From the NCBI GenBank assembly GCA_035288385.1, contig DATEAM010000130.1, positions 1 to 57,265 on the forward strand: a stretch of DNA of 57,265 nucleotides. The letters are read 5' to 3'. Below the pieces are notes generated by a model. It was given only the letters and a program-made list of their open reading frames with translations. It searched no databases and was not told the origin of the DNA. A program made the translations under genes and the position numbers. The stretch comes from Thermodesulfobacteriota bacterium. GTDB taxonomy: Bacteria; Desulfobacterota; GWC2-55-46; JADFVP01. This document shows, in pieces, positions 2,574-54,549 of the stretch (its first letter is position 1; each line of letters begins with the position of its first letter).

Positions 2574-4307
2574 ATGGCCCGGCCAATGGGGACTCACTTA
2601 TTCAAGATGAAGCCGCCATCAAAAAGCCTCGCCACGGGCATAAAGCTGTTCTTGGCCTTCGCCGTCATCTCCCTGGTAGCCTTCTGGGACTACAGGCTGT
2701 TCCTCGACAAGGCCGGCAGGATAGAGCTCTACGACGAGCTCACCTACCACATCAACTCCATAAAGGTATCGATAACCAGGCTCGAGTACACCCTCGACAT
2801 GTTCGTGGTGGCGAGGAGATTCGAGGACACGACGGTAGGCCTCATAAAAAAGGACGTGCAGAAGCTCGACAGCGCCGTAATGAGGGTCGTGGAGAACCCC
2901 GCCTACATGAGCCTCTTCGAAGCAGACGCCTTCGCCTACGACGAGGTCATCTCCGTTTCCGAGGACTGGCAGAGGGTCAAGGACGAGATAGCGGCCCTCG
3001 ACGAGGCGATGAACCAGTCGGAGGTCATCCTCATTCACAACGCCGTGGACGTGAACACCATACTCATTAACGAGAAGTCCGACAGGCTTCTTGGCGTTAT
3101 AGCGGAGTCGAGGGGGAGGGTCTTCGCAGAGACGAGGTCCCTTGCCGTAATGAGCTTAGGCGGTTTTGTCTTCATCTGCTTCTTTGCGGCCCTTGTCTTC
3201 TACAATAAGGTCATATCCCCGTTGAACTCGGTGGCGGCTACGGCCGAGGGCATAGCTTCCGGTGGCCGCTCGGCGAGGTTCGGCGAGAGCTCCGCCGGAG
3301 TTACCGGGAGGCTCGCGAGGTCTCTCAATAAAATGCTCGACGCCATGGACGGTCTCGTCACGCTCAGGGATGATGAGGCCGGGAGGCTCGCCGGGGAGAT
3401 GTCGAGAAAGAACGCCGCCATCGAGGCCCTGAACGTCTTCTCCGCGCTCGCGGGAAAGTCCATCTCACTAAGCGATATGTACGGGGCCGCAGTTACAGAG
3501 GCGGTGGGGGCGGGCATAGCCGACGCGGCCGTTATCTATCTCAGGGAGAAGGGCGACTTGAGGCTCAAGGCCTCGGAGGGTTTTGACGATTTTTTCCTCG
3601 CCGAGGGCTCAGAGATACCGGCAGGGGCCTTGAAGGGCTCTGAAGAGGAGCGCGAGGCTCACCTTTACGCGGACCTCGAGGACTTCCCCTACGAGAGGTT
3701 CGGCAAGGTCCTTAAGTCCTGCGGCTTTTCAGCGCTCCTGAGCCTGCCCATTTGCTCAAGGGACATGGTCCTCGGCTACCTTTACGCCCTTTCCAAAGAC
3801 AAAAACCTCACTATGGAGAACACGTCGTTACTCAAGGCCATGGCCGCCAGCCTGGGCTCTTACACATGTTATATAGACCTCTTTCAGAGAGAACACGGCC
3901 TCAAGAAGTTCCTCGAGCGCCTCATAAACCAGGTCCCCTTCGGGCTCGCGGTCTTCGACAAGGCCGGAAGGTGCGTGGTCCTGAACAACGTGCTGAAGAA
4001 GTTCCTCGGGACTGACCCCAAGTTCGACTTCCCGGGGAAATACTGCATATTCGAAGACGAGGTCCTCAAGTCCCAGGGGATGGTAACCTCCATAAAGAAG
4101 TCCTACGAGGGGTTCGCCACCGAGTTCATAATAAAATACGACCCCTCGCTCGTTAAGAGGTTCCGTTTGAGCGGCAAGCCCAGGAGGCTCAAGATAAAGG
4201 CCTTCCCCCTCTACGACGCGGGCGGGGAGATATCCAACATCTCGCTCATATATGAGGACGTGTCCATGTCCGAAGGCTCGGTGAGCGAGTCAGGAGAGAG
4301 AGGCTGA
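2574..4307 (+). CDS. Membrane sensor module (2 TM, HAMP, GAF-like, PAS-like) without a recognisable output domain
   Basis: Two hydrophobic helices (IKLFLAFAVISLVAFW; LAVMSLGGFVFICFFAALVFY) are followed by a HAMP-like linker. A GAF-like block (AAVIYLREKGDLRLKASEGF ... VLGYLYALSKD) and a PAS-like block (LINQVPFGLAVFDKAGRCVVLNN) follow. No HisKA, HATPase, GGDEF or similar output domain is present. The stop TGA overlaps the next ATG (tgATG at 4305-4309). Confidence 0.7.
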   Translation: MARPMGTHLFKMKPPSKSLATGIKLFLAFAVISLVAFWDYRLFLDKAGRIELYDELTYHINSIKVSITRLEYTLDMFVVARRFEDTTVGLIKKDVQKLDSAVMRVVENPAYMSLFEADAFAYDEVISVSEDWQRVKDEIAALDEAMNQSEVILIHNAVDVNTILINEKSDRLLGVIAESRGRVFAETRSLAVMSLGGFVFICFFAALVFYNKVISPLNSVAATAEGIASGGRSARFGESSAGVTGRLARSLNKMLDAMDGLVTLRDDEAGRLAGEMSRKNAAIEALNVFSALAGKSISLSDMYGAAVTEAVGAGIADAAVIYLREKGDLRLKASEGFDDFFLAEGSEIPAGALKGSEEEREAHLYADLEDFPYERFGKVLKSCGFSALLSLPICSRDMVLGYLYALSKDKNLTMENTSLLKAMAASLGSYTCYIDLFQREHGLKKFLERLINQVPFGLAVFDKAGRCVVLNNVLKKFLGTDPKFDFPGKYCIFEDEVLKSQGMVTSIKKSYEGFATEFIIKYDPSLVKRFRLSGKPRRLKIKAFPLYDAGGEISNISLIYEDVSMSEGSVSESGERG

Positions 4308-10313: not shown

Positions 10314-10342
10314 AACCTACGCTTGAAGATGGTTTATATTGT

Positions 10343-10520
10343 GGGGAACTTTCTGTAGAAAGTTCCCCCCAAACCCCCTTCAAAGACTTTTAGCTGATTA
10401 CCCTTTGGAGGTAGACCCCCTTCTACGCGAATTTCATCTCCCGGGGGTCTACCTCCAAAGGACAGCCAAAAATTTTTGGAAGGAGTTTGAGGAAACCTTT
10501 TTATAAAAAGGTTTCCTCAA
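10343..10520. repeat. Nested-palindrome intergenic element, copy A (three hairpins; ERIC/MITE-like)
   Basis: Hairpin 1 is ggggaacttt/aaagttcccc. The central hairpin has a 19-bp stem, cctttggaggtagaccccc/gggggtctacctccaaagg, with a 22-nt loop. Hairpin 3 is gaggaaaccttttt/aaaaaggtttcctc. Alignable to 20809-20994 along both arms. Confidence 0.75.
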
Positions 10521-13204: not shown

Positions 13205-15545
13205 GTTAATTTTCCTCTTTCTCTTTGCAGTCCTCGCCTTTTCACCCGCCGTGGTCTCCTCTCAGGAGATTATCGTCCTGAGGATAATAGTCAACGCCGT
13301 GGACCTTGGCGACAGCTTCGTCGTCCTGACCCCCGAGGGCGACGTATGGGTGGAGAGGGAGGTATTAACCAGGGCTCGCCTCAGGGACGGGGTGGGCTCT
13401 ACGGCGACCTTCGAGGAGAAGAGGTACGTCTCCCTCTCTTCCGTCCCCGGCCTCGAGTTCAACCTTAACGAAGAGGAAGTGTCCCTCGAGATAGAGGCCT
13501 CGGCCGGGCTTTTCGAGGAGCAGAAGATAGACGTGGCGCATAAAAGGCCCTACGAAATAGTCTATACGCGGGAGAACTCCGCTTTTTTCAACTACTCCCT
13601 CAACTACCACCCCGACGACTCGGCCGCAGACCTTTCCACCGAGCTCGGGGCGAGGGTGGGGGACTGGCTCGGCACGTCGACCTTCGGCTACGAAATCAAC
13701 TCTGAGCGCGACAGGTTCGTAAGGTTACTCACGACCCTTTCCATGGACGACAGACCGGGGCTCAGGAGGGTCAGCCTCGGGGACTTCAACTCCGCCTCGG
13801 GGGTCCTCGGCACGGGCACGATCCTCGGCGGGATAAATTTTTCTAAGGACTTCTCCATCAACCCCTATTTCCTCCAGTACCCGGCCCTCTCCTTGAGCGG
13901 CGCCCTCAAGACCCCCTCCGAGGTGGAGGTATATGTTAACGGGGTGCTCGTGAGGAGGGAAAAGCTCCTTCCCGGCGAGTTCGAGCTCTCAAACGTCCCG
14001 GCGAGCATAGGGCTCGGGTCCTCAGAGATAGTCATACGCGACGCCTACGGCGCCGAAGAGGTGGTGTCCGAAAGCTTCTTCTATACAGACAGGCTCTTGA
14101 AGCGCGGGCTCCACGAATACTCCTTAAGCCTCGGTTTCCTGAGAGAGGACCTCGGGGAGGAGAGCTTTTCCTACGGCGACCCCGTGGTCCAGGCCTTCCA
14201 TAACGTGGGCCTGACACGCGCCCTCAAGGGCGGGTACTCCCTCGAGGCGTCCCCCGAGCTTGTAAGCGCCGGGCCGACGGCCTCATTAAGGGTCATGAAC
14301 ATCGGGGTGGTGGACGCGGCGCTCTCGGTGAGCGGCTCAAGGAACAGGGGGGGCGTCGGGGGGTTTCTCGGATACTTTTTCAGGGGCCACCGGGTAAACG
14401 TGGCTCTCTCGCTAAGGTATCTTTCGAGGCACTACTCAAACCTCGCCATAGACGCCCTCGAGGATAAGCCGCGTTTGCAGTTCACCGGCTCGGCCGGAGT
14501 AAACCTCCCGAGAGTCGGCTCCTTTTCCGTGGATTACTCGACGACGGACTATTATACAGGCGAGGGGAGCGGGGGGGGAGGGGGGGGAGGGGACACGGAC
14601 CGTTATGCCCTCCTCTATACGAGGAACATTACGACCAGAGCGAACCTCTTCGCCACCGCATCGAGAACGGAGGTGGATAACGGGGAAGACACGGACGAGG
14701 TCTTCCTCGGCCTCCACGTTTATTTCGGAGGCGACGTCTCCGGGAGCCTCGGCTATACCGGGGGCGACGACGGGGAGGTAAAGAGGGCCTCGGTGCAAAG
14801 GAGCCTGCCCGTAGGCACGGGCCTTGGCTTCAGGGCCCAGGCCGAGGACCTGGGAGACGGGACTGACCTCCTTGCCGACGCCGACTATCAGACGGACTAC
14901 GGCACATTCGGCGCCGGCTACAGGGAGACGGGCCCGGATAAGGACTACTTCCTCTCAGCCTCGGGAGGAGTCGGCTACATAGACGGCTCCGTCTTTTTAA
15001 GCAGGCCCGTAACGGACAGCTTCGCCAAGGTGAAGGCTGGCGAAGTGGAGGACGTAAGGGTATATTACTTCGGAGAAGAGGCGGGCAGGACCGACTCCAG
15101 GGGCGAGTTGATAATCCCGGTATTGCGCTCATGGCGAGACAACAGGGTCGACATAGAAAAGCAGGACATCCCCATAAACTACTCCATCCCTTCGTCTACC
15201 ATGTACGTGAACCCGCCCCTGAGGAGCGGTTCCCTCGTGGAGTTCGACGTGACGAGGGTCCAGGGCCTCTCGGGCCATGTCTACGTCGTTTTAGAGGGCG
15301 AAAAGGTTCCTGTTGAATTTTCGAGGATGCTCGTTATACTTAAGGAGAGGGCGGTGGAGGGGCTTGTGGGCAGGCACGGAGAATTTTACGTGGAGAACGT
15401 CCCAGAGGGCACTCACCCGGCAAAGGTCTTTTTAAAGGAGAGGGCGTGCGTCTTCGTTATAACCGCCCCGGGAGGCGATGAGGCATGGGTGGACCTGGGG
15501 GACATGGTCTGCGAGTTGGGTGCAGAGGAGGTCACGGGGCAATGA
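13176..15545 (+). CDS. Outer-membrane fimbrial usher (CsuD-like)
   Basis: A 789-aa beta-rich protein with a signal peptide (LIFLFLFAVLAFSPAVVSSQE). It overlaps the chaperone 3' end and is followed by a second SCPU gene through an ATGA overlap. Contains in-frame G-run blocks at 14345-14363 and 14564-14592. Confidence 0.85.
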   Translation: MSKQACAPLKLIFLFLFAVLAFSPAVVSSQEIIVLRIIVNAVDLGDSFVVLTPEGDVWVEREVLTRARLRDGVGSTATFEEKRYVSLSSVPGLEFNLNEEEVSLEIEASAGLFEEQKIDVAHKRPYEIVYTRENSAFFNYSLNYHPDDSAADLSTELGARVGDWLGTSTFGYEINSERDRFVRLLTTLSMDDRPGLRRVSLGDFNSASGVLGTGTILGGINFSKDFSINPYFLQYPALSLSGALKTPSEVEVYVNGVLVRREKLLPGEFELSNVPASIGLGSSEIVIRDAYGAEEVVSESFFYTDRLLKRGLHEYSLSLGFLREDLGEESFSYGDPVVQAFHNVGLTRALKGGYSLEASPELVSAGPTASLRVMNIGVVDAALSVSGSRNRGGVGGFLGYFFRGHRVNVALSLRYLSRHYSNLAIDALEDKPRLQFTGSAGVNLPRVGSFSVDYSTTDYYTGEGSGGGGGGGDTDRYALLYTRNITTRANLFATASRTEVDNGEDTDEVFLGLHVYFGGDVSGSLGYTGGDDGEVKRASVQRSLPVGTGLGFRAQAEDLGDGTDLLADADYQTDYGTFGAGYRETGPDKDYFLSASGGVGYIDGSVFLSRPVTDSFAKVKAGEVEDVRVYYFGEEAGRTDSRGELIIPVLRSWRDNRVDIEKQDIPINYSIPSSTMYVNPPLRSGSLVEFDVTRVQGLSGHVYVVLEGEKVPVEFSRMLVILKERAVEGLVGRHGEFYVENVPEGTHPAKVFLKERACVFVITAPGGDEAWVDLGDMVCELGAEEVTGQ
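14564..14592 (+). repeat. G4-AGC-G8-A-G8-A-G4 block in-frame in the usher (encodes GSGGGGGGGD)
   Basis: Direct reading: ggggagcggggggggaggggggggagggg. Confidence 0.9.
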
Positions 15546-17282: not shown

Positions 17283-17358
17283 GCGGGAGTAGCTCAGTTG
17301 GTAGAGCGCAACCTTGCCAAGGTTGAGGTCGCGGGTTCGAGACCCGTCTCCCGCTCCA
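17283..17358 (+). tRNA. tRNA-Gly (anticodon GCC), CCA encoded
   Basis: 76 nt, gcgggagtagctcagttggtagagcgcaaccttGCCaaggttgaggtcgcgggttcgagacccgtctcccgctcca. Cloverleaf with a 7-bp acceptor stem, GTTCGAG T-loop and anticodon loop cttGCCaa. Very close to E. coli tRNA-Gly(GCC) as I remember it. Confidence 0.97.
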
Positions 17359-17375: not shown

Positions 17376-17459
17376 GGGGCCGTCTGTTGGGGGCTGACTG
17401 TCGGGGGCTGTCACTCGGGGGCTGACTGTCGGGGGCCGTCTGTCGGGGGAGACTCCCCC
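17376..17459 (+). repeat. Tandem array of six 13-15 bp G5-led units directly downstream of tRNA-Gly
   Basis: Units: ggggccgtctgtt / gggggctgactgtc / gggggctgtcactc / gggggctgactgtc / gggggccgtctgtc / gggggagactccccc. The unit order is A-B-C-B-A followed by a self-complementary unit. Confidence 0.9.
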
Positions 17460-20140: not shown

Positions 20141-20803
20141 ATGGCTGAAGACAGGGTCGTGGACGAGGTGCTCGAGTTCATATGGTCCGAGCGGGAGGTT
20201 GGCAACCGCTCGGTAAAGCAGTTGATGCACATAGAAGAGGTGGAAAAGGCCGAGGCTGACCGCACCACCCTGGAGGAGATGGAAGGCGACGGACTCATCA
20301 CCCTCGACGGCGACTCCGTCTTCCTGACGCCAAGGGGCGAGGAGCTCGCGCAAAACGCCATAAGAAGGCACAGGCTCGCAGAGAGGCTTCTCTCAGAGGT
20401 CCTCGCCATGGACGAGGACAAGATAGAAAAGGAGGCCTGCAGCTTCGAGCATACCCTCTCGGCGGAGGTGGCCGAGAGCATCTGCACGCTCCTCGGACAC
20501 CCCCCCACCTGCCCCCACGGGCTGCCCATACCCAAGGGGGAGTGCTGCAAGAAGACGAGCGCGGAGATGAAACCCCTGGTAGAGTCCCTCGACAAGCTCG
20601 GCGTAGGCGAGACCGGGAGGATCATCTTCATAGTCTCGAACATCCACACGAGACTCGACAAGCTCTCCGCCCTCGGCATCGTCCCGGGAAGCACCATAAG
20701 AGTACACCAGAAAAGACCCGCCTTCGTCATACAGATGGGGGAGACCACCCTCGCCCTCGACCCCCAGATAATAAGAGAGATCTACGTCAGAAGGGTAGGT
20801 TGA
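20141..20803 (+). CDS. DtxR/MntR-family metal-dependent regulator with C-terminal FeoA (SH3-like) domain
   Basis: RRHRLAERLL ... CSFEHTLS ... LLGHPPTCPHGLPIP (DtxR metal-binding/dimerisation region), then LGVGETGRIIFI ... LGIVPGSTIRV (FeoA-like). Confidence 0.85.
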   Translation: MAEDRVVDEVLEFIWSEREVGNRSVKQLMHIEEVEKAEADRTTLEEMEGDGLITLDGDSVFLTPRGEELAQNAIRRHRLAERLLSEVLAMDEDKIEKEACSFEHTLSAEVAESICTLLGHPPTCPHGLPIPKGECCKKTSAEMKPLVESLDKLGVGETGRIIFIVSNIHTRLDKLSALGIVPGSTIRVHQKRPAFVIQMGETTLALDPQIIREIYVRRVG

Positions 20804-20808
20804 TTTCT

Positions 20809-20994
20809 GGGGGGAAACCTTTCTGAAGAAAGGTTTCCCCCCAGACCCCCTTTCCAAAGACTTATGGCTATCCCATGGAGGGAGACCCCCCGGAGATGAA
20901 ATTTGCACAAGAGGGGGTCTCCCTCCATGGGATAAATAGCAAAAAGTTTTTGAGGGGAGTTTGAGGGGAACTTTTTTCAAAAAGTTCCCCTCAA
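20809..20994. repeat. Nested-palindrome intergenic element, copy B
   Basis: Hairpin 1 is ggggggaaaccttt/aaaggtttcccccc. The central stem is cccatggagggagaccccc/gggggtctccctccatggg with a 22-nt loop. Hairpin 3 is gaggggaacttttt/aaaaagttcccctc. Begins 6 nt after the stop of the dtxR-like gene. Confidence 0.75.
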
Positions 20995-21039
20995 AATCAC
21001 CCTACCAAAAACCCCTTAGATGTGGTAGATTCAGGGCCT

Positions 21040-26861: not shown

Positions 26862-26960
26862 GGAGCCTTTCTGCAAGACACCCCTCGATGGATGAGGACG
26901 AAAGTTTTTGAAGGGGGGGGTGAGGGGAAAACTTTTTTCAAAAACCTTTCCTCCTGAAAA
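26862..26960. repeat. Internally deleted copy C of the nested-palindrome element
   Basis: A degenerate left arm (ggagcctttctgcaagacacccc) and the start of the central stem (gatggatgaggac) are joined to a right arm, aaagtttttgaaggggggggtgaggggaaaacttttttcaaaaacctttcctc. That arm aligns to 20939-20992. Confidence 0.5.
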
Positions 26961-26964
26961 AAAT

Positions 26965-36683: not shown

Positions 36684-36827
36684 TCTAAAAATATGTTGCT
36701 AATTCCGTGACTGACGGAATCAAGGTGGCCACCACCGGGGAACGGAATCCTTTCTCTATACTGCCGACCGTCTGGGCGAACGAGGTGTGAAAGCTCTATT
36801 CACATTCAAGTCCCGGGCGGTTTTTTT
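36684..36827 (+). ncRNA. Candidate small RNA or terminated leader of about 145 nt (class not recognised)
   Basis: Bounded by the promoter above and by a terminator: ccgtctggg (36768-36776) pairs with cccgggcgg (36812-36820), encloses a second hairpin (gtgtgaa/ttcacat) and is followed by T7 (36821-27). Internally, one ATTCCGT (36702-08) can pair with either of two ACGGAAT copies (36714-20 or 36742-48). The only ORF is a 5-codon one (36693-36710). Confidence 0.4.
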
Positions 36828-36831
36828 GTTT

Positions 36832-36885
36832 CAGGGGGATGAGGGGGGGTAGGCGGGCGGGGGGTACGGGGGGGCGGGGGGGCGG
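36832..36885 (+). repeat. Intergenic G-run block (G5,G7,G3,G6,G7,G7)
   Basis: Direct reading: cagggggatgagggggggtaggcgggcggggggtacgggggggcgggggggcgg. Confidence 0.9.
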
Positions 36886-37052
36886 AGACGACCGCAGGGC
36901 GATGGGGCGGCGCCTTGAGGCCAGGGCGTCAACAGCCCCAAAAGGCTTGACAAAAATGAGATAATCTGGCACAGTTTATGCCTCAAAAAAACTTTCAATA
37001 TAATATGAGGTAGTGGAAGCTTGCCCGGGCCCTCGGGTGATTTACGCCGTAA

Positions 37053-39314
<2,262 letters not shown>

Positions 39315-39405
39315 GGACCTGCGGAAAAAGGCCTGACAGCACGTATCAGGCAATTGCATGAACTTGTTGATTTTTTTGTGTAAAATAGACTAATGGAGGT
39401 GCCCG

Positions 39406-40692
39406 ATGCAGCTTACGGGACTACTCTGGGGCTCCAAGCTCCTTTCAAAGGTCGAGTTCCCCCATGCCGAGATCCTGGGGCCTGAGGCGAGTACAGACGA
39501 GATAAAAGACCTGATAGCAAGGCACGGCTCCGTCTTCATAAAGCCCATCTTCAAGGGAGGAGTGGGCAAGAAAGGAAAATCCGGGCTCATAGGAAGGGCC
39601 TCGGACATAACCTCCGCCCTCAAGGAAAAGGAGAGGCTCTACTTCATAGAGCACGTCCACGGCACGAGCTGCGCCAAGGCCGACGGCGTGACCTTCGAGG
39701 GCGCCGTGCCGGCGGAGCACGAGGTCTATTTCTCCATAGCCGACTCCACCGTGTACCGCGCCCCGACGATGACGATCTCTCACTGCGGCGGGGTGGACAT
39801 AGAGGAGCTTGGAAAAGACAAGATAAAGGAGGTCCCCTTCGACCCTTTAACGGGACTTAAGAGCTTCCACGTATCCAACGCCCTGGATGACCTCGGGGCG
39901 CCAAGCGGGATAATAAGCCCCCTTGTCCAGAACCTCCCCAAGCTCTGGACCCTCTTCAACAACTACGGGATGGCCACCCTGGAGCTGAACCCCATAAGGA
40001 TGATGTGCACGAAGGGCCGCCGTCTCCTGCCCGTTGCCTGCGACTTCAAGGGCGCCTTTGACATTGACAACCCCGCCTGGAAGAGGCTCGGCCTTCCTAC
40101 ACACCTCTTCGCCTCTGACTACTCGGAGTTCGAACAGGAGATAAACCAGCTCAGGACCTACCAGGGCCAGAGCGACGTATTCGTTATAAACCCGAAGGGC
40201 ACGATTACCTCGCCCACCTTCGGCGGGGGGGCCAACGCCCTCGTGACCGAGCTCCTCGGGGACAGGGCCACCATCAGCTCGGACTTCGGAGGGAACCCCC
40301 CATACGAGAAGATGTTCCAGATATCCAAGATAGTCTTCAAGTACTGGCTCAAGCAGAGTAACGTCCTCTTCATAATCGGCGGGAAGGCTAACAACACCGA
40401 CATCTTCGAGACCTTCAGGGCCATGGCCGACGCCCTTAGAGAGCACTTCAGCAAGACGGGGCCCACCCCGCTCTTCGTCGTCATAGGAAGGGGCGGCCCC
40501 AACCTCGTCAGAGGCATGGCCTACATGAGGGACACCCTCGACAACCTCCGTCTGCCCTACAGGATATTCGGCCATGACTCCGCCATGAGCGAGGTCGTGA
40601 ACTTCGCCCTGAAGGCCGACGAGTGGATGGAGCGCGAGGGTAGAAACCTGGTCGAGGCGAGCCTGAAGGGTGAGGCCGTAAAGGCCATTTAA
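39406..40692 (+). CDS. aclB: ATP-citrate lyase beta (small, ATP-grasp / succinyl-CoA-synthetase-beta-like) subunit
   Basis: ATP-grasp N-terminus (VFIKPIFKGGVGKKGKSGLIG) ... MATLELNPI ... FGGGANA ... VVIGRGGPN. 428 aa, immediately upstream of the alpha subunit. Confidence 0.8.
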   Translation: MQLTGLLWGSKLLSKVEFPHAEILGPEASTDEIKDLIARHGSVFIKPIFKGGVGKKGKSGLIGRASDITSALKEKERLYFIEHVHGTSCAKADGVTFEGAVPAEHEVYFSIADSTVYRAPTMTISHCGGVDIEELGKDKIKEVPFDPLTGLKSFHVSNALDDLGAPSGIISPLVQNLPKLWTLFNNYGMATLELNPIRMMCTKGRRLLPVACDFKGAFDIDNPAWKRLGLPTHLFASDYSEFEQEINQLRTYQGQSDVFVINPKGTITSPTFGGGANALVTELLGDRATISSDFGGNPPYEKMFQISKIVFKYWLKQSNVLFIIGGKANNTDIFETFRAMADALREHFSKTGPTPLFVVIGRGGPNLVRGMAYMRDTLDNLRLPYRIFGHDSAMSEVVNFALKADEWMEREGRNLVEASLKGEAVKAI

Positions 40693-40752
40693 TCCCGATT
40701 GTTGGCTTAATTACTTAATAAAATGCTTGAAAAATAAAAGGAAGGCACGGAC

Positions 40753-43464
40753 ATGCATAAAGCAGGCGTAAAAAAATTCCCCTATTACGTTGGAATAAAC
40801 TCACTCGACGAGGTGGCAACCCGTGATGACCGCGTCGTCGTCTTGAACATACTCGGCACCGAGAGCCACGGCGTAACCCCTGTAAGCCACGCCTTCTCCG
40901 GCGGCAACGTGGTCTTCGGCACGAGCCCCGGACGCTCCGGGCAGGTCCTCGAGACCCCGGACGGGGAGATCCCCGTATACAACTCCATTAGAGAGGGGAG
41001 AAAGGCCGGGCACAGGTTCAACACCGCCGTCATATACCTCCCGCCCTCCGGAGTCAGGGACGGTGTAGCCGAGGCAGTCAGGCACAACCCGGACCTCAGG
41101 AAGGTCATCATATTGACTGAAAAGGTCTCTGTCAACGACGCGAGAACCATACGCGCCATATGCCAGGCCAACGGAGTTGACGTCTTCGGCGCGAACTGCC
41201 TCGGTGTAGCCGACGCCTGGAACAGGGTGAGGATAGGCGGGGCCCTCGGAGGCAGCAAACCTGACGAATCGCTCGTTAAGGGCTCCATCGCCCTCTTCTC
41301 CAACTCAGGAAACTTCACCACCACCATAGCCGTGTACCTCCTTACCAGGGTCTGGGGCACGACGACGAGCATATCGAGCGGCAAGGACGTCTACATCCAC
41401 TTCGCACCCCACGAGTTCTTCAACGCCCTCGACAACGACAAAAGGTCGAAGGGCGCCGTAATATACGTGGAGCCCGGCGGGTACTACGAGCACGGCCTCG
41501 AGATAAACAAGCCCACTGTGGCCTGCGTGGTGGGGCGCTGGAAGGCCCGGCTCACAAAGGCCTGCGGCCACGCCGGAAGCCTCGCCGGCTCCGGGGACGA
41601 CGCCCGCGCGAAGGAGCAGTGGTTCATGGACGACTTCGGGGTGGACGGCATCTATACCCCGGAGAAACCCGTCTTCTCGAAGAAGGGCGCCGTGGTAACC
41701 AACATAGCCCACATACCGGAGGCCCTCTCTAAAGTAATGGAGCTTAACGGCATAAAGCCGGACTTCGAGCCCAGGGGAGACCTGTCGCTAAAGTGCTGGT
41801 TCGCCTTCAACTCCGGGGTCTCTCTTCCCGAGGAGCTCGACGTGCCCGTGATTAGGGCCGTGGAGCCTTACGGAGGCCAGATTGAGCAGGTTAACAGGCA
41901 GATAGGCGCCCAGTTCCCCCGCCAGTCCATGAAGGACGCCTCCGGGGCCTCGATGATGGACCCGAAGACACAGGTCACGAAGGTACACAACCTCTCCATA
42001 CTCGACGCATCGAAACGCACCCTTGAGGATAACCTCGTCTTCTCCCTCCTGAAGACCTACCCGGACGAGTACGGACGCACCCTCGCCAACATAGCCTTCA
42101 ACTCCTGGGTGAACCACCACGCCGACCCGGCCCTCGCCGCGGCGGACGCGTCCAGGGAGGCGGAGAACTCCCCGAACACGGCCCTAAGCGCCGCCGTGTC
42201 GATAATGGGCAGGGGCAGGGTAAAGGACTCCGTGGAGACCTCAACGCTCCTCCTCGAGCTCTTCGGGTCAACGGGACTTAAATCCCCGTCGGAGGAGTTC
42301 GACTTCTCGAAAATCTTGAAGGGGCTTAAAAAGGAAGAGAAGGGGTCGTTAACGGCGTCCAAGGACGATAAACTCGCTGCCTCTATCCTCAAGAACCTCG
42401 ACGGGCTCGACAGGAAGTCCGTCTTCGTGGAGTTCGTAAAAGAGGCCTCGGGAGGGAGACCCTCGACAGGGGCCCTTGTGTCGGCCATATGGATGACGCT
42501 CGCCTGGGAGCCCCTGATGGCCAAGAAGATATCGAAGGTAACCATTACGGAGCTTCCCTGGTACTCGAGGGTCTTTTCGGCCATCGTCGGGTGCAGCGTG
42601 CCCGCTGTGAGGCACGCCGAGGGCGAGTTCTGCGGCGTGAAGACGGACAAGCTCATAAAGGAATGGTCCTTTACCGAGACGGCCTTCCTCGCCCTTATCG
42701 GCAGGAGGCCGACGGAAAAAGAGCTCTTCGAGTTTTCCATGCTCCTCGGGCTCATCATATCCAACGGACCGGGCACCATCTCCGCCCAGGGCTCCAAGGG
42801 CGCCGTCTCGGCCGACGGCCCCGAGGACCCCGGCAGGGTCCAGATAAACAAGGCCTTCGTGGGCTTCATGACCCACACGGGTTTCGCCCACGGGGGAAAC
42901 GGCTACGAGGCCATCGCCTTCCTCATAGAGAGGTTCAAGGACACCGGCCTCAAGGACCCGGCGAGCAAGGACCACGGCATAGACCTCAAAAAGATAGCCG
43001 ACGGGTACGCGAACTGGTACAGCGGCTACAAGGCCGAGCAGAAGGCCGTGGGCAACATCGAGTACAAGAAGATACCCTGCGTGAACCACCCCGTCTTCAA
43101 GGGCAAGCCCGTCAACTTCGACCCGAGGGAGAGGTTCGTCTCCGAGCTCTTCGAGGCAAAGGGCATATACAACGTCTTCCTCGACTTCTACGGCAAGCTC
43201 GTCCTCTCGCTCTTCGAGACCGGGGTATCGAAGGACGTATACTGCGTCAACGTGGACGCCGTTATAGCGGTGATACTCCTGAAGGTCGTGTGGGACGCCT
43301 ACAGGTCTGGCAAGATGACGGATAAAGAGGTCGAATCGGCGGCCTTTACCACCTTCGTATTCGGCCGCATGATAGGCTGCGCGGCGGAGATAGACGACCA
43401 CATAAACAGGGGCCGCAACATGGACACGAGGACGGCGGCGTCCAAGTGCTCCTTTGTCGGCTGA
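40753..43464 (+). CDS. aclA: ATP-citrate lyase alpha (large) subunit, long form: SCS-alpha-like domain + about 300-aa extra region + citrate-synthase-like lyase domain
   Basis: CoA-binding/SCS-alpha part (VVVLNILG ... VFGTSPGRSGQ ... IPVYNS ... GANCLGV ... phospho-His loop ACGHAGSLAGSG, His codon 41569-71). The C-terminal citrate-synthase-like motifs are FAHGGNGYEA, IPCVNHPVFK and AEIDDH. Confidence 0.8.
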   Translation: MHKAGVKKFPYYVGINSLDEVATRDDRVVVLNILGTESHGVTPVSHAFSGGNVVFGTSPGRSGQVLETPDGEIPVYNSIREGRKAGHRFNTAVIYLPPSGVRDGVAEAVRHNPDLRKVIILTEKVSVNDARTIRAICQANGVDVFGANCLGVADAWNRVRIGGALGGSKPDESLVKGSIALFSNSGNFTTTIAVYLLTRVWGTTTSISSGKDVYIHFAPHEFFNALDNDKRSKGAVIYVEPGGYYEHGLEINKPTVACVVGRWKARLTKACGHAGSLAGSGDDARAKEQWFMDDFGVDGIYTPEKPVFSKKGAVVTNIAHIPEALSKVMELNGIKPDFEPRGDLSLKCWFAFNSGVSLPEELDVPVIRAVEPYGGQIEQVNRQIGAQFPRQSMKDASGASMMDPKTQVTKVHNLSILDASKRTLEDNLVFSLLKTYPDEYGRTLANIAFNSWVNHHADPALAAADASREAENSPNTALSAAVSIMGRGRVKDSVETSTLLLELFGSTGLKSPSEEFDFSKILKGLKKEEKGSLTASKDDKLAASILKNLDGLDRKSVFVEFVKEASGGRPSTGALVSAIWMTLAWEPLMAKKISKVTITELPWYSRVFSAIVGCSVPAVRHAEGEFCGVKTDKLIKEWSFTETAFLALIGRRPTEKELFEFSMLLGLIISNGPGTISAQGSKGAVSADGPEDPGRVQINKAFVGFMTHTGFAHGGNGYEAIAFLIERFKDTGLKDPASKDHGIDLKKIADGYANWYSGYKAEQKAVGNIEYKKIPCVNHPVFKGKPVNFDPRERFVSELFEAKGIYNVFLDFYGKLVLSLFETGVSKDVYCVNVDAVIAVILLKVVWDAYRSGKMTDKEVESAAFTTFVFGRMIGCAAEIDDHINRGRNMDTRTAASKCSFVG

Positions 43465-44389: not shown

Positions 44390-45796
44390 ATGCGCGACAA
44401 AGCCGAAAACAGCGAAAAGAAGGTCTTTCTCGAGACCTTCGGCTGCCAGATGAACGACAACGACTCCGAGAGGCTCCTCGGCTTCCTAAGCGGTATGAAC
44501 TACGTGCCTACCGGGGAGCCGCAGGGTGCAGACCTCATAATAATAAACACCTGTTCCATCCGCGACAAGGCCGAGCAGAAGGTATATTCAACCCTCGGCA
44601 GGTTCAGGGCGATGAAGGATGAGAACCCCGGGCTTATAATAGGCGTCGCCGGCTGCGTGGCACAGCAGGCCGGTGAAAAGCTCCTCAAGAGGGCCCCTTA
44701 CCTCGACATGGTGGTGGGGACCAATAACGTGCACAGGATAGAGTCCCTTATAGACGAGGTCTCCCGGAGGAAGACAAGAGTGGTGGCTACGGAGATGAAC
44801 CCGGCAATAGACGCCGGGGAATACTCCGAAAGATACTTAAACTCCGGTCCCAGGGCCTTCGTGAGCATCATGCGGGGCTGCGACAACTTCTGCTCTTACT
44901 GCATCGTGCCCTTTACGAGGGGCAGGGAGGTGAGCAGGACCTCGTCAGAGATAATCGACGAGGTGCGCCGCCTCGCCGACATGGGCGTAAGAGAGGTTAC
45001 GCTCATCGGCCAGAACGTAAACTCCTACCGCGACCCTGAGAAGGGGGGAGAGTGGGCAGGGGGGGCAGGGGGGGCAGAGGGGGTCGGTTTTACCGGGCTT
45101 CTAAGGGGGGTGGCCGCCGTGGAGGGCATAGAGAGGGTAAGGTTCATAACCTCGCACCCGAAGGACATCTCCGGCGAATTAATCGGGCTTTTCAAGGACG
45201 AGCCGAAACTCTGCCGCCATATGCACCTGCCCGTGCAGTCCGGCTCTGACGCAGTGTTAAAGAGGATGGGCAGGGGCTATACGAGGCAGGCCTACCTCGA
45301 AAAGGTCTACCAGTTGAAGGAACTCTATCCCGATATGGCCGTTACCACCGACGTAATCGTCGGTTTTCCAGGCGAGACGAAGGCCGACTTCCGACTCACC
45401 ATGGACCTTGTGGAGGCCGTAAGGTACGACGGCATATTCTCCTTCAAGTACTCGCCGAGGCCAGGCACCAGGGCCGCGGGATTTGACGGACAGGTGCCTG
45501 ATGAGGTAAAATCAGATAGACTCTCCGTTTTGCAGGAGGCCCAGAAGGGGATTGCCGCCGAGAGGAACACCTCCCTCTTGGGAAAGACCCTCGAGGTCCT
45601 CGTGGAGGGCGGTAGCAGGCTCGACGCTACGGAGCTGACGGGCAGGTCCCCCTGCAACAGGGTGGTCAACTTCCCCGCCCCCGCCGCAGAAGGGCTCGCG
45701 GCCGGGATGCTCGCATACGTCGGGATAACCGCCGCGTTCACCAACTCGCTACGCGGGATATATAAAGAAAGGAGTGAGTCATGTTCTTGGAGATGA
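44390..45796 (+). CDS. miaB: tRNA-i6A37 methylthiotransferase
   Basis: UPF0004 N-domain (FLETFGCQMN, NTCSIR, GC), radical-SAM CDNFCSYCIVP and a TRAM C-terminus. Carries an in-frame G-run block at 45043-45083. Confidence 0.93.
   Translation: MRDKAENSEKKVFLETFGCQMNDNDSERLLGFLSGMNYVPTGEPQGADLIIINTCSIRDKAEQKVYSTLGRFRAMKDENPGLIIGVAGCVAQQAGEKLLKRAPYLDMVVGTNNVHRIESLIDEVSRRKTRVVATEMNPAIDAGEYSERYLNSGPRAFVSIMRGCDNFCSYCIVPFTRGREVSRTSSEIIDEVRRLADMGVREVTLIGQNVNSYRDPEKGGEWAGGAGGAEGVGFTGLLRGVAAVEGIERVRFITSHPKDISGELIGLFKDEPKLCRHMHLPVQSGSDAVLKRMGRGYTRQAYLEKVYQLKELYPDMAVTTDVIVGFPGETKADFRLTMDLVEAVRYDGIFSFKYSPRPGTRAAGFDGQVPDEVKSDRLSVLQEAQKGIAAERNTSLLGKTLEVLVEGGSRLDATELTGRSPCNRVVNFPAPAAEGLAAGMLAYVGITAAFTNSLRGIYKERSESCSWR
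45043..45083 (+). repeat. G-run block with repeated CAGGGGGGG units, in-frame in miaB (GGEWAGGAGGAEG)
   Basis: Direct reading: ggggggagagtgggcagggggggcagggggggcagaggggg. Confidence 0.9.
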
Positions 45797-46293: not shown

Positions 46294-46351
46294 GGGGCAG
46301 CGGGGGGGGTGGCGGGAGGGGGTAGGGGGCAGGGGGCAAAAAGGTCGGGGG
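46294..46351 (+). repeat. Intergenic G-run block (G4,G8,G3,G5,G5,G5,G5)
   Basis: Direct reading, starting 16 nt after the BFN stop. Confidence 0.9.
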
Positions 46352-46501
46352 TCCGACAATCACCTTCCCCTGTTCACAGGGCCGCAGAGTTTTTTCACAC
46401 GATGAGTTGATATCCAGTAAAACGCTTGCCCGTCCCCGGACCGGGGTTTTGAAATTTCCGTAAAAAATCATTTGCGAAAGCCGGGGCCCCTTTGAGGCGC
46501 C

Positions 46502-46537
46502 GGGGGGGCTGGGCGCCGGGGGGGAGGGGGGGGGAGG
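46502..46537 (+). repeat. Intergenic G-run block (G7,G3,G7,G9) abutting the RBS of the PHP gene
   Basis: Direct reading: gggggggctgggcgccgggggggagggggggggagg. Ends 14 nt before the ATG at 46551. Confidence 0.9.
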
Positions 46538-46550
46538 ACCGAGTGAATCC

Positions 46551-50659: not shown

Positions 50660-53290
50660 ATGAAAAACCTTACCCCGGCCATGCGCCAGTACATGGAGAT
50701 AAAGGGCGAGAACCCGGACGCGATCCTTTTTTTCAGGATGGGGGACTTCTACGAGATGTTCTTCGACGACGCGGTAACCGCATCGAGGATAATGGGCATA
50801 GCCCTCACATCGAGGGACCGCGACCGCGAGATCCCCATGTGCGGGGTCCCATACCACTCGGCGAGGTCTTACATAGCGAAGCTCGTGGGAGAGGGGCTCA
50901 AGGTGGCCGTATGCGAGCAGGTCGGGGACCAGGGCCAGGCAGGGGCAGGGGGGGCAGGGGGAGGAGGGGTAGGAGGGGGGGGCAAGGGCATAGTAAGGAG
51001 GAAAGTAGTCAGGGTCATAACCCCGGGCACGGCAGTCGAGGACGAGCTCCTTGAGCCAGGAGCGAACAACTTCATAGCCGCGGCGAGCGTAAACTCCAGG
51101 AAATACGGTTTCGCCTACATGGACCTCTCAACAGGGGAGTTCCTCCTTACGGAGCTCGCCTCGAAAGAGGAGCTTACCGACGAGATAAGAAGGATAAGGC
51201 CCCTCGAGCTCATAGTCGAGAGGTCGAGGCAGGCTGAGTTCTCCTCCACGGACCCGTCCGTAAAAAAACTGACCCCCCTTCCGGAATACGACTTCGAAGA
51301 GGGGGTGGCCGCCGGGAGGATGAAGGCCCACTTCAGGACCCACTCCCTCGACGGCTTCGGCTGCTCCGGGCTACCCGCCGCCGTGAGCGCGGCAGGAGCG
51401 CTCCTCCATTACATAAAGGGCACCCAGAAGACCGAGCTCGCCCACATAAGGAAGTGCACGCCCTACTTCCCGGACGACTACCTCGTCCTCGACTCCACGA
51501 CGAGGAGGAACCTCGAGATAACGGCCAACTTGAGGTACGCCACGAAGGAAGGCACGCTCCTTGAGCTCCTCGACACCACCTCGACGGCCATGGGCGCAAG
51601 GAGGCTCAAGTCCTGGCTCCTCCACCCCCTTAAGGACGCCTCAGAGATAAACCGCAGGCTCGACGCCGTCGAAGAACTCGTGGAAAAGAGGGAGGCGAGG
51701 GAGGCGCTCGCCTCCCTCTTCAAAGACGTATACGACCTCGAGAGGCTCTGCGCCAGGGTCTCTCTCGCCATGGCCGGCCCGAGGGACTTGGCGGCCTTGA
51801 GGAACTCCCTTGAGAAGCTCCCCCGGGTGGCTGAAGCCGCTTCCGATTTGAGAGCACCCATGCTCAGCGAGCTCTCATCCAACATGGACCCGGTAAGCGA
51901 GGCCGCTTATGCAATAGGAAAGGCAGTGGTGGAAAACCCCCCGGCGACGGTCAGGGATGGGGGCGTTATAAGGGAGGGCTTCGACTCCGCCCTCGACGAA
52001 CTCAGGGAGATAGGCTCCGGGGGCAAGGACTGGATAGCGAGGCTCGAGGCCGGGGAGAGGAGGAGGACGGGCATAAACTCCCTCAAGGTGGGCTATAACA
52101 GGGTCTTCGGCTACTACATAGAGGTGACGAGGACGAACCTTCAGAGCGTGCCCCCGGAGTACACGAGGAAGCAGACCCTTGTGAACGCCGAGAGGTTCGT
52201 AACAGGGGAGCTCAAGGAGTGGGAGGACAGGATACTTACGGCCGAGGAGAAGGCCACAGAGCTCGAGGGAGAGCTCTTTTCCGACCTCGTGGAAACCCTC
52301 TCTCAGTATACGGAGAGAATCAGGAGTACCGCCGCCGTGGTCTCAACGCTCGACGCCCTTATCTCGCTTGCCCGCGCCTCGGAGAGAAACGGATACGCGA
52401 AGCCCGAGGTCGTAGAGGGCACTGAGATATTCATCCGCGACGGCAGGCACCCCGTGGTGGAGGCCTCTGCCGCAGGGGACTTCGTCCCCAACGATTTGAG
52501 CGTTGACGGCTCCACGAGCCAGGTCCTCGTCATCACGGGCCCCAACATGGCTGGAAAGTCCACGTACCTGAGACAGAACGCCCTCATTGTGCTGATGGCC
52601 CAGATTGGGTGTTTCGTCCCCGCGGCCGAGGCCAGAATCGGGGTGGTGGACAGGATATTCACGAGGGTGGGCGCCTCGGACGACCTCTCGAGGGGACAGT
52701 CTACCTTCATGGTGGAGATGAACGAGACGGCTAACATCCTCAATAACGCCACCCCAGGGAGCCTCGTCATACTCGACGAGATAGGCCGCGGCACCTCCAC
52801 CTTCGACGGGCTGAGCATCGCCTGGAGCGTCGTTGAGTACATCCACGACCACCCGGGGCTTAGGGCAAAGACCCTCTTCGCCACCCACTACCACGAGCTC
52901 ACAGAGCTTAACTTGACAAAGGAAAGGGTCAAAAATTATAATATGGCTGTCAAGGAGTGGAACGGAGAGGTGATATTCCTGAGGAAGGTGGTCCCCGGGG
53001 GTTCTTCCTCAAGTTACGGCATACAGGTGGCAAAGCTCGCGGGCCTGCCCGACAGGGTAATAGAGAGGGCGGGGGAGATATTGAGGAACCTCGAGAAGGG
53101 CGAGCTTACCGAGACCGGGGCCCCGAGGCTCGCCGCCCACGCCAAGGGTGAAGAAGAGATAAAACAGCTGAGCCTTCTCGGAGCGAAGGACGAACTGAGG
53201 GAGCGATTGAAGACTATCGACATCGAAAGGACCACGCCCATAGAGGCCCTCGATTTGCTTCATAAACTGAAAATGCTGCTGGATGAGTGA
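50660..53290 (+). CDS. mutS: DNA mismatch repair protein MutS
   Basis: TPAMRQYMEIK ... FFRMGDFYEMFFDDA ... ITGPNMAGKSTYLRQ ... DEIGRGTSTFDG ... THYHEL. The ATG at 50660 is preferred; in-frame upstream ATGs exist at 50630, 50639 and 50642. Carries an in-frame G-run block at 50924-50988. Confidence 0.95.
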   Translation: MKNLTPAMRQYMEIKGENPDAILFFRMGDFYEMFFDDAVTASRIMGIALTSRDRDREIPMCGVPYHSARSYIAKLVGEGLKVAVCEQVGDQGQAGAGGAGGGGVGGGGKGIVRRKVVRVITPGTAVEDELLEPGANNFIAAASVNSRKYGFAYMDLSTGEFLLTELASKEELTDEIRRIRPLELIVERSRQAEFSSTDPSVKKLTPLPEYDFEEGVAAGRMKAHFRTHSLDGFGCSGLPAAVSAAGALLHYIKGTQKTELAHIRKCTPYFPDDYLVLDSTTRRNLEITANLRYATKEGTLLELLDTTSTAMGARRLKSWLLHPLKDASEINRRLDAVEELVEKREAREALASLFKDVYDLERLCARVSLAMAGPRDLAALRNSLEKLPRVAEAASDLRAPMLSELSSNMDPVSEAAYAIGKAVVENPPATVRDGGVIREGFDSALDELREIGSGGKDWIARLEAGERRRTGINSLKVGYNRVFGYYIEVTRTNLQSVPPEYTRKQTLVNAERFVTGELKEWEDRILTAEEKATELEGELFSDLVETLSQYTERIRSTAAVVSTLDALISLARASERNGYAKPEVVEGTEIFIRDGRHPVVEASAAGDFVPNDLSVDGSTSQVLVITGPNMAGKSTYLRQNALIVLMAQIGCFVPAAEARIGVVDRIFTRVGASDDLSRGQSTFMVEMNETANILNNATPGSLVILDEIGRGTSTFDGLSIAWSVVEYIHDHPGLRAKTLFATHYHELTELNLTKERVKNYNMAVKEWNGEVIFLRKVVPGGSSSSYGIQVAKLAGLPDRVIERAGEILRNLEKGELTETGAPRLAAHAKGEEEIKQLSLLGAKDELRERLKTIDIERTTPIEALDLLHKLKMLLDE
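50924..50988 (+). repeat. G-run block in-frame in mutS (GDQGQAGAGGAGGGGVGGGGKG), including G7 and G8 homopolymers
   Basis: Direct reading: ggggaccagggccaggcaggggcagggggggcagggggaggaggggtaggaggggggggcaaggg. Confidence 0.9.
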
Positions 53291-53292
53291 TT

Positions 53293-54549
53293 ATGAGCCC
53301 GCGCGTCCTCCCCCCCCTGCCCCCCCTGCTGCCGCAGCCCCACATTGCGGGGTCTTCCCTTAAGACCCTCTTTGTGCTCCTGCTATTCCTCATCGCGGTC
53401 TTTATCCCCGACGAGGTATACCCCCTTGCGCCCATGACTCATGTAACGAGGATAAGGCACTGGTCCAACCCCGACTATACGAGGGTGGTAATAGACCTCT
53501 CGGAAAAGACCACTTACAGCTACAGGCTCCTGAAGCAGGACCCGTCCATCAACAAGCCAAGGCGCCTCTACGTGGACATCGAAGGAGGGACGCTCGGCAA
53601 GGAGATCGACAGGTCCATACCCATATACGACGGGCTTTTGATGGAGGCGAGGGCCGGGCAGTTCGACAGAAGCACCGTGAGGGTAGTGCTCGACATAGAA
53701 AGCATCGAGGAGTACAAGGTCTTTGCGCTCCAAAACCCCTTCAGGATCATAATAGACGTCTCGGGCAAGAGAAGGGCCTCGGGCCAGAAGGCCGATAGGG
53801 CTGAGGAGGCCGGGGGGGCCGGGGGGGTCAAAAGGGATTACGAAAAACAGGCTCTCAGGAAATATAAAAAGGGGTTGAGGATAGTCATAGACCCGGGCCA
53901 CGGCGGAAAGGACCCCGGGGCCATAGGCAGGAGTGGGCTCGAGGAAAAGGAGGTAACGCTCAAGATATCGGAGCTCCTCAGGGAAAAACTCTCAAAGAAA
54001 CTCGGCTCGGCCGAGATCATAATGACGAGAGACACGGACGTCTTCATCCCCCTCGAGGAGAGGACGGCCATAGCCAACAAGGTGGACGCGGACCTCTTCG
54101 TCTCCGTGCACATAAACGCGAGCCCCCGGAGGGCGGCGAGCGGGATCGAGACCTATATACTGAGCCGCGCCAAGGACGAAGAGGCCCGCAGGCTTGCGGC
54201 CAGAGAAAACGCCACCACCGCCGGGGCCTTAAGCGACCTGGAGTTCATACTCGCCGACCTCATAAAGACCGCGAAGACCAACGACTCGATGAGGCTCGCC
54301 GCCTCGGTGCAGGAAAACCTCGTTGACGGGCTCAAGACCAGGTACAGGGGGATAAACAGCAACGGCGTAAAGGGCGCCCCCTTCTACGTGCTCGTGGGCA
54401 CGAGGATGCCGAGCATACTCGTGGAGGTCTCCTTCATAAGCAACCCCACCGAGGAGAGGAGGCTTAAAGACCCGAGGTACTTGAGTACCGTAGTGGAGGG
54501 CATAGCCTCAGGAGTCATAGCCTACATAAACGGATCCGGGCTTACATAA
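53293..54549 (+). CDS. amiC: N-acetylmuramoyl-L-alanine amidase with N-terminal AMIN domain (AmiC-like)
   Basis: AMIN domain (RIRHWSNPDYTRVVIDL ... RLYVDI ... RVVLDI ... FRIIIDV) and Amidase_3 (IVIDPGHGGKDPGA ... SVHINA ... GIETY ... VEVSFISNP). A GTG at 53287 is an alternative start. Confidence 0.88.
   Translation: MSPRVLPPLPPLLPQPHIAGSSLKTLFVLLLFLIAVFIPDEVYPLAPMTHVTRIRHWSNPDYTRVVIDLSEKTTYSYRLLKQDPSINKPRRLYVDIEGGTLGKEIDRSIPIYDGLLMEARAGQFDRSTVRVVLDIESIEEYKVFALQNPFRIIIDVSGKRRASGQKADRAEEAGGAGGVKRDYEKQALRKYKKGLRIVIDPGHGGKDPGAIGRSGLEEKEVTLKISELLREKLSKKLGSAEIIMTRDTDVFIPLEERTAIANKVDADLFVSVHINASPRRAASGIETYILSRAKDEEARRLAARENATTAGALSDLEFILADLIKTAKTNDSMRLAASVQENLVDGLKTRYRGINSNGVKGAPFYVLVGTRMPSILVEVSFISNPTEERRLKDPRYLSTVVEGIASGVIAYINGSGLT
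53307..53341 (-). repeat. G-run block in reverse orientation (C8,C7,C4 on the + strand), read as Pro-rich PPLPPLLPQP in the amidase N-terminus
   Basis: The reverse complement of cctcccccccctgccccccctgctgccgcagcccc contains cagggggggcagggggggg, the same CAGGGGGGG unit seen in miaB and mutS. Confidence 0.85.
53809..53828 (+). repeat. (CCGGGGGGG)x2 in-frame in the amidase inter-domain linker (AGGAGG)
   Basis: Direct reading: ggccgggggggccgggggggt. Confidence 0.9.

Follow-up and report, generated by a model that had tools for sequence, protein, structure and literature searches.

The window, which is the whole 57,265-nt stretch of DNA that was analysed, carries about 38 genes, all of them housekeeping, and the nearest relatives of its DnaE (74 to 79% identity) belong to MAGs labelled Deltaproteobacteria or Thermodesulfobacteriota. 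Set between these genes, at a density of 2.5 copies per 57 kb, is a palindromic element (Table 1): copy A, between moxR (11493 to 10549) and a DUF58-like gene (10313 to 9189); copy B, between a DtxR/FeoA-type gene, whose TGA stop (20801 to 20803) lies within the repeat on the left of the element, and dnaE; and the half-copy C, between pheA (stop at 26861) and an aminotransferase gene (ATG at 26966). A reading of the window from its sequence alone had noticed no transposase, and none was found among the roughly 38 genes, nor was a recombinase or an HUH domain (the His-hydrophobic-His nuclease motif).

Several other features were recorded in the window. Repeats of G tracts with an 8- to 9-nt period were found at 47 to 103, 14558 to 14592, 45035 to 45092, 46495 to 46538, 50924 to 50990, and 53786 to 53836, with further repeats in the intergenic stretches 36842 to 36900 and 46301 to 46338 and a C-rich mirror at 53282 to 53344. 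Most of the G-tract repeats lie inside predicted genes, where they give Gly/Ala-rich insertions in housekeeping proteins, the hosts being a PolA-like protein, an usher, a radical-SAM protein (UPF0004), a PHP-domain protein, MutS domain I, and an AmiC-like amidase. A 14-nt unit (GGGGCTGACTGTCG-like) is repeated five times in tandem at 17376 to 17449; the array is immediately 3' of the tRNA at 17283 to 17355 and precedes the fur-feoB-dtxR genes. A ZMP/ZTP riboswitch aptamer at 36697 to 36784 (54 bits against a gathering score of 39) lies ahead of a G-tract region, after which comes a monomeric isocitrate dehydrogenase gene (about 37.1 to 39.3 kb); a riboswitch of this class is more often linked to a purine or folate gene. 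ATP-citrate-lyase-like genes (39394 to 43464; Citrate_bind, ATP-grasp_2, and Succ_CoA_lig domains) adjoin the isocitrate dehydrogenase gene, and the pair hints at a possible reductive TCA cycle in this MAG.

Copies A and B are three-hairpin nested palindromes, and both could be read from the sequence with the layout and at the positions that the sequence-only reading had given. The terminal units, each about 32 to 34 nt, are of two types, x and y, which carry the diagnostic sequences TTGAGGGRAACTTTTTGAAAAAAGTTYCCCTCAAACTCCYYTCAAAAACTTTTAGCTA (x) and GGGGGGAACCTTTCTGAAGAAAGGTTCCCCCCAAACCCCCTTCCAAAGACTTTTGGCTA (y) and have the feet TTGAGG… (x) and (T)GGGGGG… (y). The two arms are inverted repeats of each other and resemble TIRs, as had been proposed. 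The central module of the family is a perfect 20- to 22-bp hairpin with a 22-nt loop and a 4-nt bulge, and in B a linker separates this module from the terminal hairpin on either side. The y hairpin of B has a 15-bp core stem (GGGGGGAAACCTTTC), a TGAA loop, and three outer pairs besides and shows compensated variation across copies (helix 1/6). The minus strand, to which A is assigned, is the strand of its flanking genes and of its forward loop. Features of REPs were present (short palindromic units, highly repeated, with all full copies seen being intergenic), as were features of MITEs (about 190 bp, multi-copy, no conserved ORF, and terminal inverted repeats). A small ORF beginning at the ATG of the loop was considered and discarded; it is not conserved and meets a stop after four codons in A and most copies.

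Table 1. Coordinates of the element copies in the window, their parts and flanking repeats, and the alleles seen at locus B
Feature	Position	Strand	Description
Element A, full copy	10340-10520	-	class x…y on the minus strand
A terminal hairpins	10343-10368 and 10487-10520		
A bulge	about 10396-10399		left side as seen on the + strand
A inner module	10400-10461	-	stems 10400-10420 / 10443-10461, loop 10421-10442
Left flanking inverted repeat of B	20794-20804	.	GGTAGGTTGAT; 10/11 complementary to 20996-21006
Element B, full copy	20805-20995	+	class y…x: y-arm, central module with loop forward, reverse-complemented x-arm; segment that occurs inverted in other strains
B y-type terminal hairpin	20806-20845	+	stems 20809-20823 / 20828-20842; RNA fold
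B inner module	20870-20937	+	stem, loop, and bulge
B central stem	20870-20890 with 20913-20933		21 bp, perfect; variable 6-nt block inside
B central loop	20891-20912		22 nt; conserved AGATGAA
B bulge	20934-20937		4 nt, AAAT, 3' of the central stem
B x-type terminal hairpin	20961-20994	+	TTGAGGGGAACTTTTT TC AAAAAGTTCCCCTCAA
Right flanking inverted repeat of B	20996-21006	.	ATCACCCTACC; 34 nt upstream of the dnaE ATG (21040)
Copy C, half element	26899-26961	+	linker and x-type terminal hairpin (26922-26954)
Locus B, allele 1			y-first, window sequence; left junction in L003, L004, L006, L008, L009, and L010, right junction in L102
Locus B, allele 2			x-first, exact reverse complement of B, junction GGTAGGTTGAT / TGAGGGG; L005, L007, and L011
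Locus B, allele 3			x-first, different central hairpin with another loop; L098 (left part) and L103 (right part)

Further copies, on which the proposal of an element family depended, were found in related metagenomes. A scan of JGI metagenomes with a single pattern confined to the central stem returned 77 loci, and the same loop motif (GGAGATGAAATTCGCGYAAGA) was present in about 50 instances at about 35 distinct loci, all from one series of related samples. Every such match with enough flanking sequence sits within x/y arms. Mobility of the inner module as an independent unit was considered and rejected because the matches to the module-specific pattern were all inside such arms. In the fetched loci, nhmmer produced 425 alignments to two HMMs of the arms, both of which scored most of the sites; this search added copies whose arms are those of A and B and whose centres differ, including other loops, a short TTTCC…GGAAA centre, and unrelated GC hairpins. 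The design is thus modular, with conserved arms and a replaceable central palindrome.

With the strict central-stem pattern, the family was absent from 185,579 reference genomes, the sole match being an unrelated hairpin in a Dormibacteraeota MAG, and viral contigs gave zero matches to either the core pattern or the arm pattern. The element was also absent upstream of dnaE in relatives with 75 to 79% DnaE identity, including a syntenic contig (L096) that carries feoB-dtxR-dnaE without it. In close strains, it was present at A, B, and C in all cases and no empty site was seen; variants and orientations differed at B. We conclude that A and B belong to a family of multi-copy, non-coding intergenic palindromes of about 190 bp that is lineage-specific and has not been described previously.

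The junctions of about 20 full copies were searched for target-site duplications, a check that the sequence-only reading had proposed, and no direct repeat was found; flanks that do resemble each other are arranged as inverted repeats. Such locus-specific flanking inverted repeats are present at A (TTGAAGAYGG), at B, and at one of the JGI loci (L022; 30 bp). As a general feature of the family they were rejected, A, B, and L022 being the only loci that exceed or approach the cross-locus control. At L022, a 30-bp inverted duplication specific to the locus (3230 to 3259 and 3476 to 3504) encloses the copy and takes in the 3' end of the gene upstream. Two JGI contigs, L035 and L084, hold four family elements in about 6.8 to 7.0 kb, or about one per intergenic spacer, a density much above that of the window. 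A variant of the y hairpin with half of its stem replaced by ACAGATTGTG (GGGGGGAAACCTTTCTTACAGATTGTGTTTCCCCCC) was seen in L022, L053, L067, L087, L091 (about position 2140), and L074 and, being common to several loci, would represent a propagating subfamily. In addition, several contigs match another contig by one flank only (L033 against locus B, L067 against L087, and others), which may reflect rearrangement at the repeat or chimeric assembly. One public ENA contig (L101) starts, at 1 to 60, with AGATGTGTATAAGAGACAG, which we take to be a Nextera adaptor that would have been left untrimmed in the assembly.

The central claim of the sequence-only reading was that the arms of A and B are co-linear and the loop between them is reversed. 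On the + strand, both copies have the y-arm on the left and the x-arm on the right with the central module reversed, and the match of 16/22 between the loop of A and the reverse complement of that of B was read off the sequence again. Aligned directly, A and B show 82% identity with many gaps, and A aligns to the reverse complement of B with 79% identity over 151 nt, few gaps, and a higher score; both alignments are obtained because the arms are near-palindromic. The possibility that A is simply the reverse complement of B was ruled out, since the diagnostic x/y positions of the arms are co-linear and the inner module is reversed. The reversal is therefore real, but what is reversed is usually larger than the loop alone that had been proposed. 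The bulge lies 3' of the loop in all copies except three (L022, L051, and L042-35), so that the usual flipped unit comprises stem, loop, and 4-nt bulge, and a flip of the loop alone is rarer than that of the whole inner module.

Across the family, the loop does not follow the arms. Read with the loop in its forward orientation (GGAGATGAAATT), 28 copies were x…y (A-like), 14 were y…x (B-like), and 1 was y…y, and loop and arm orientation are thus uncoupled. By nearest-neighbour similarity of their arms, the two classes intermingle: half of the arms of class 2 are closest to class 1, and five types of the variable block were common to both. The classes are not two clean subfamilies. Among 16 flank matches at about nine loci, no shared locus differed between samples in the orientation of its inner module, and such flips are therefore infrequent on the timescale sampled. 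Because the bulge travels with the loop, the crossover would lie mostly in the shorter linker repeat (about 10 bp) and not in the 21-bp central stem, contrary to what simple length-dependent recombination predicts.

At locus B, the whole element is inverted between near-identical strains. Three alleles were distinguished among strains whose flanks are 99.4 to 99.9% identical (Table 1). The junction to the inverted allele comes directly after the left flanking repeat, and in the x-first allele of L103 the right flank follows the y-arm. The exact DtxR protein is encoded on 13 contigs; all 10 of the contigs shown break inside element B, one of them (L002) ends exactly at the breakpoint, and L098, which encodes a close DtxR variant, also breaks inside the element. 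The right junction was reached through contigs carrying AccA. An assembly artefact was considered as the source of the inverted allele and rejected: its junction shares about 5 to 12 nt with the other end of the element, far below assembly k-mers, and it recurs in four independent assemblies, with the opposite junction also found. Allele 3 (right junction in L103, CTCCCC / AAAATCACCCTACC) has four changed stem positions, all of them compensated, and is a different family variant at exactly the site of B in a strain 99.5% identical. Since its central hairpin differs in an almost identical strain, replacement is needed here and inversion alone would not suffice. In sample ERZ27254873, junctions of allele 1 (L003) and allele 3 (L103), which differ in sequence, co-occur. 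At locus A, a single orientation was found in nine independent contigs, seven of which are assembled through the element.

The stems of the family combine strict pairing with divergence between copies. Folded as RNA, B has an energy of -124.7 kcal/mol (z = -14.9; 200 shuffles) and, as DNA, one of -72.7 kcal/mol (z = -12.9), and no shuffle came close. A consensus from 20 distinct copies comprises 64 pairs, of which 23 are compensated, and 97.5% of the cells in the alignment are paired. Two-sided changes occupied 140 cells, compared with 49.9 ± 5.9 in shuffles (none of 500 shuffles reached 140), and sliding the partners dropped pairing to 44 to 66%. The 6-nt block in the central stem (TC-N6-GAGGGAGACCCCC) occurs as about 15 sequences that are nearly always perfectly complementary, and in that stem five pairs are doubly changed and none is changed on one side only (to G-U). 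Stems therefore differ between copies yet stay strictly Watson-Crick, with G-U pairs almost absent; the core of the loop (AGATGAA) is invariant. This stem pattern is unusual for an RNA under selection and would be the expected result of copying from one arm to the other. Template switching has been reported to invert loops, to introduce compensatory changes at several bases, and to create perfect stems (PMC8794818).

Near-identical strains appear to show such arm-to-arm copying directly, as clustered self-complementary changes. The C hairpin is imperfect in the window and in L102 to L105 and is a perfect palindrome in L106 and L108, the difference being a cluster of three or four changes together with a change of the loop from TC to GA, in strains that are 99.4 to 99.6% identical. 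In L004, from a 99.8% identical strain, the y hairpin of B differs from that of the window at three stem positions, and two of the three changes compensate each other (A to G paired with T to C).

The position of the elements relative to genes is also regular. In 25 of 28 element-facing gene ends, the stop codon either falls inside the terminal hairpin or precedes it by at most 14 nt, and 10 of these 25 stops are the TGA of the x-arm TTGAGG itself; other stops come from the TGATTT that precedes the y hairpin (example loci are L024, L027, L036, L044, L051, L071, L076, L077, and L084 and, in the window, 20801 to 20803). This closeness suggests either insertion at stop codons or strong compaction of the spacer. 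The elements fill spacers between co-directional operon genes, with downstream starts often 10 to 45 nt farther on, and at about 17 of 22 loci the forward loop points the same way as the upstream gene, with reversed cases also occurring. Sequence scans of A and B found neither a sigma-70-like promoter nor an intrinsic terminator. No Rfam family was matched at gathering score, and a permissive threshold returned generic miRNA-precursor hairpins far below threshold. No recurrent ORF family was found among about 180 ORFs neighbouring the copies, and neither the window nor about 0.3 Mb of fetched loci contained an autonomous, transposase-encoding element with the ends of the family.

Taken together, these data point with moderate confidence to a REPIN/BIME/MITE-like family in which nested inverted repeats drive both the flips and the concerted evolution of the arms by template switching or recombination. 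Two REP-like terminal hairpins, x and y, face each other, and the linkers pair and enclose the central module. Inverted repeats are thus nested at three levels, so that replication or recombination can switch template between arms. One such switch would flip the inner module relative to the arms and give the difference between A and B; occasionally a switch would flip the loop alone, and the whole element would flip between short flanking inverted repeats, as at B. A change copied from arm to arm would keep the stems Watson-Crick as they diverge between copies. For the family to reach new sites, or for one variant to take the place of another at a site, a trans-acting function encoded outside the window would be required; an HUH/RAYT-type or other transposase and ectopic gene conversion are candidates. 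We infer template switching as the mechanism, the mobility of the element, and any effects on flanking genes. Most likely, the flips themselves arise incidentally from errors in copying between inverted repeats and are not a dedicated genetic switch.

Some of the observations at locus B would fit a programmed inverton, namely a trans-encoded tyrosine or serine invertase that flips the segment of about 190 bp and thereby alters the expression of its neighbour, dnaE. Both orientations occur there at one locus between 11-nt inverted repeats that are 10/11 complementary, all of the DtxR-side contigs recovered break at the element (L002 exactly at the breakpoint), and two orientation alleles are present together in ERZ27254873 (L003 and L103). 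However, those two alleles, 1 and 3, differ in sequence and therefore represent different strains and not switching, locus A has one orientation in nine contigs, and about nine other shared loci never differ in orientation. A segment in both orientations between inverted repeats was found at locus B only; elsewhere the flanking repeats are locus-specific and mostly absent, so that there is no common recombination site outside the element. Furthermore, the element is nearly symmetric, so a flip changes little, neither copy in the window contains a detectable sigma-70-like promoter or terminator, and the window contains no recombinase. An inverton is accordingly an improbable explanation. Allele 3, another family variant at exactly the site of B in a 99.5% identical strain, would fit with transposition, in which a MITE-like element excises and re-inserts, or inserts independently, in either orientation at preferred sites. 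The preferred sites would be stop codons or palindromes, and different variants could land at one site. The flanking inverted repeats at A, B, and L022 (30 bp) would be expected from insertion into a hairpin loop, the stops of 25 of 28 gene ends are near or in the terminal hairpin (ten using the x-arm TGA), and relatives lack the element. Against this, target-site duplications were not seen, flanking repeats are confined to some loci, and neither a transposase nor a full-length parent was found in the window or among the neighbouring ORFs. In addition, although the scan was aimed at the inner module by itself, no module was seen without surrounding arms, and moves of the whole element cannot by themselves create two arm-versus-module classes. 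Transposition as the sole process is thus rather unlikely.

The stable fold and strong covariation could also be taken to mean that a structured RNA came first, acting as an mRNA 3' stabiliser, a terminator or insulator, or a translation-coupling device, with selection for RNA pairing as the cause of the covariation. The element does fill the co-directional spacer, overlap the upstream stop, and end 10 to 45 nt before the downstream start; its forward loop runs with the upstream gene at about 17 of 22 loci, and the AGATGAA core is invariant. Yet the perfect stems almost lack G-U pairs, both orientations relative to transcription occur, even at one locus, and the centre can be replaced by unrelated hairpins. 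A U-tract terminator and an Rfam match are both lacking, and the same operons in relatives are without the element, so that little weight can be given to the RNA reading. The inverton, pure transposition, and RNA-first readings are each less well supported than template switching or recombination between nested repeats. A more far-reaching reading, which we regard as a long shot, is that the nested flips are catalysed. The elements would then not be passive repeat DNA but a genome-wide set of modules with switchable orientation, or a mobile element of a new kind that recognises hairpins, and they would target stop codons and tune genes such as dnaE. In that very speculative case, the element would supply the stop, fill operon spacers, and tune expression or translational coupling.

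Whether read as template switching or as recombination, the nested-repeat account has several implications. It adds a previously undescribed family of interspersed palindromes from an uncultured lineage of deltaproteobacterial type and offers unusually clear natural data on how inverted repeats at three nested levels would produce orientation variants. Its less ordinary traits are the modular inversion, the polymorphism of the whole element in near-clonal strains, the templated evolution of the stems, and the association with stop codons. Perfect stems would be kept by templated one-step changes and not by slow compensatory mutation, which bears on the evolution of REP- and MITE-like repeats in general. 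Copying at the DNA level can mimic the covariation that is used to call functional RNA structure. For metagenome assembly, contigs break and possibly mis-join at these elements, and the tight association with stop codons provides a concrete lead on effects on gene expression.

The family was compared with known systems of short repeats. The sequence-only reading had called the element ERIC-like, and this part of its description did not hold: both ERIC core primer sequences (ERIC1R and ERIC2) had no match in the window within three mismatches. The family resembles the ERIC/IRU elements of Enterobacteriaceae in being an imperfect palindrome of comparable size that occupies transcribed intergenic regions in either orientation; it differs from them in having no sequence relationship and in its phylum, and ERIC lacks the three-hairpin layout. 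Integron attC sites were considered and rejected, since the ends, inspected by eye, lack RYYYAAC or GTTRRRY cores and the copies lie between housekeeping genes. The Correia/NEMIS elements, which are MITEs of Neisseria, are non-coding, multi-copy elements of about 100 to 200 bp near gene ends, with long imperfect terminal inverted repeats of alternative types in different combinations and a duplicated TA. Set beside the Neisseria elements, the present family is similar in size, copy number, combinable types of inverted repeat, and position at gene ends, but it lacks a target-site duplication, has no known parent insertion sequence, and has terminal units that are themselves hairpins.

Invertons, such as fimS and the invertible promoters of Bacteroides, are short segments between inverted repeats that occur in both orientations in natural populations. 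Locus B is similar in that its segment lies between inverted repeats and was seen in both orientations. In contrast to invertons, the family has no detected promoter, nearby invertase, or common flanking site, most of its loci are fixed in one orientation, and the invertible segment is almost symmetric.

The REPINs and BIMEs of Pseudomonas and Enterobacteria are mobilised by RAYT transposases of the Y1/HUH type, whose genes usually have REPs on either side. No RAYT gene was found in the window or next to the other copies. In REPINs, the REPs are conserved and the hairpin that separates them is variable and compensated (PMC3116915). The family shares with REPINs and BIMEs the short, intergenic, highly repeated palindromic units, two of them inverted and of two types (compare the Y and Z REPs), and a spacer that is variable yet forms a hairpin with compensatory changes, as described in two reports (PMC3116915; PMC3333891). 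It differs from them in its greater length (190 bp), in a discrete central module that occurs in both orientations, and in arm consensuses without a GTAG-type foot; the GTAGG beside B belongs to the end of the flanking gene. Membership in the REP/REPIN group is therefore not established, given the missing GTAG foot and a search for RAYT that covered the window and the neighbourhoods of the copies. The likeness to template switching at quasipalindromes lies in loop inversion, one-step multi-base compensation, and perfect Watson-Crick stems, as reported from microbial quasipalindrome hotspots and from non-coding hairpins of plastids (PMC8794818). Template switching is, however, a mutational mechanism and not an element family, and here it would act on a dispersed repeat at three nested levels.
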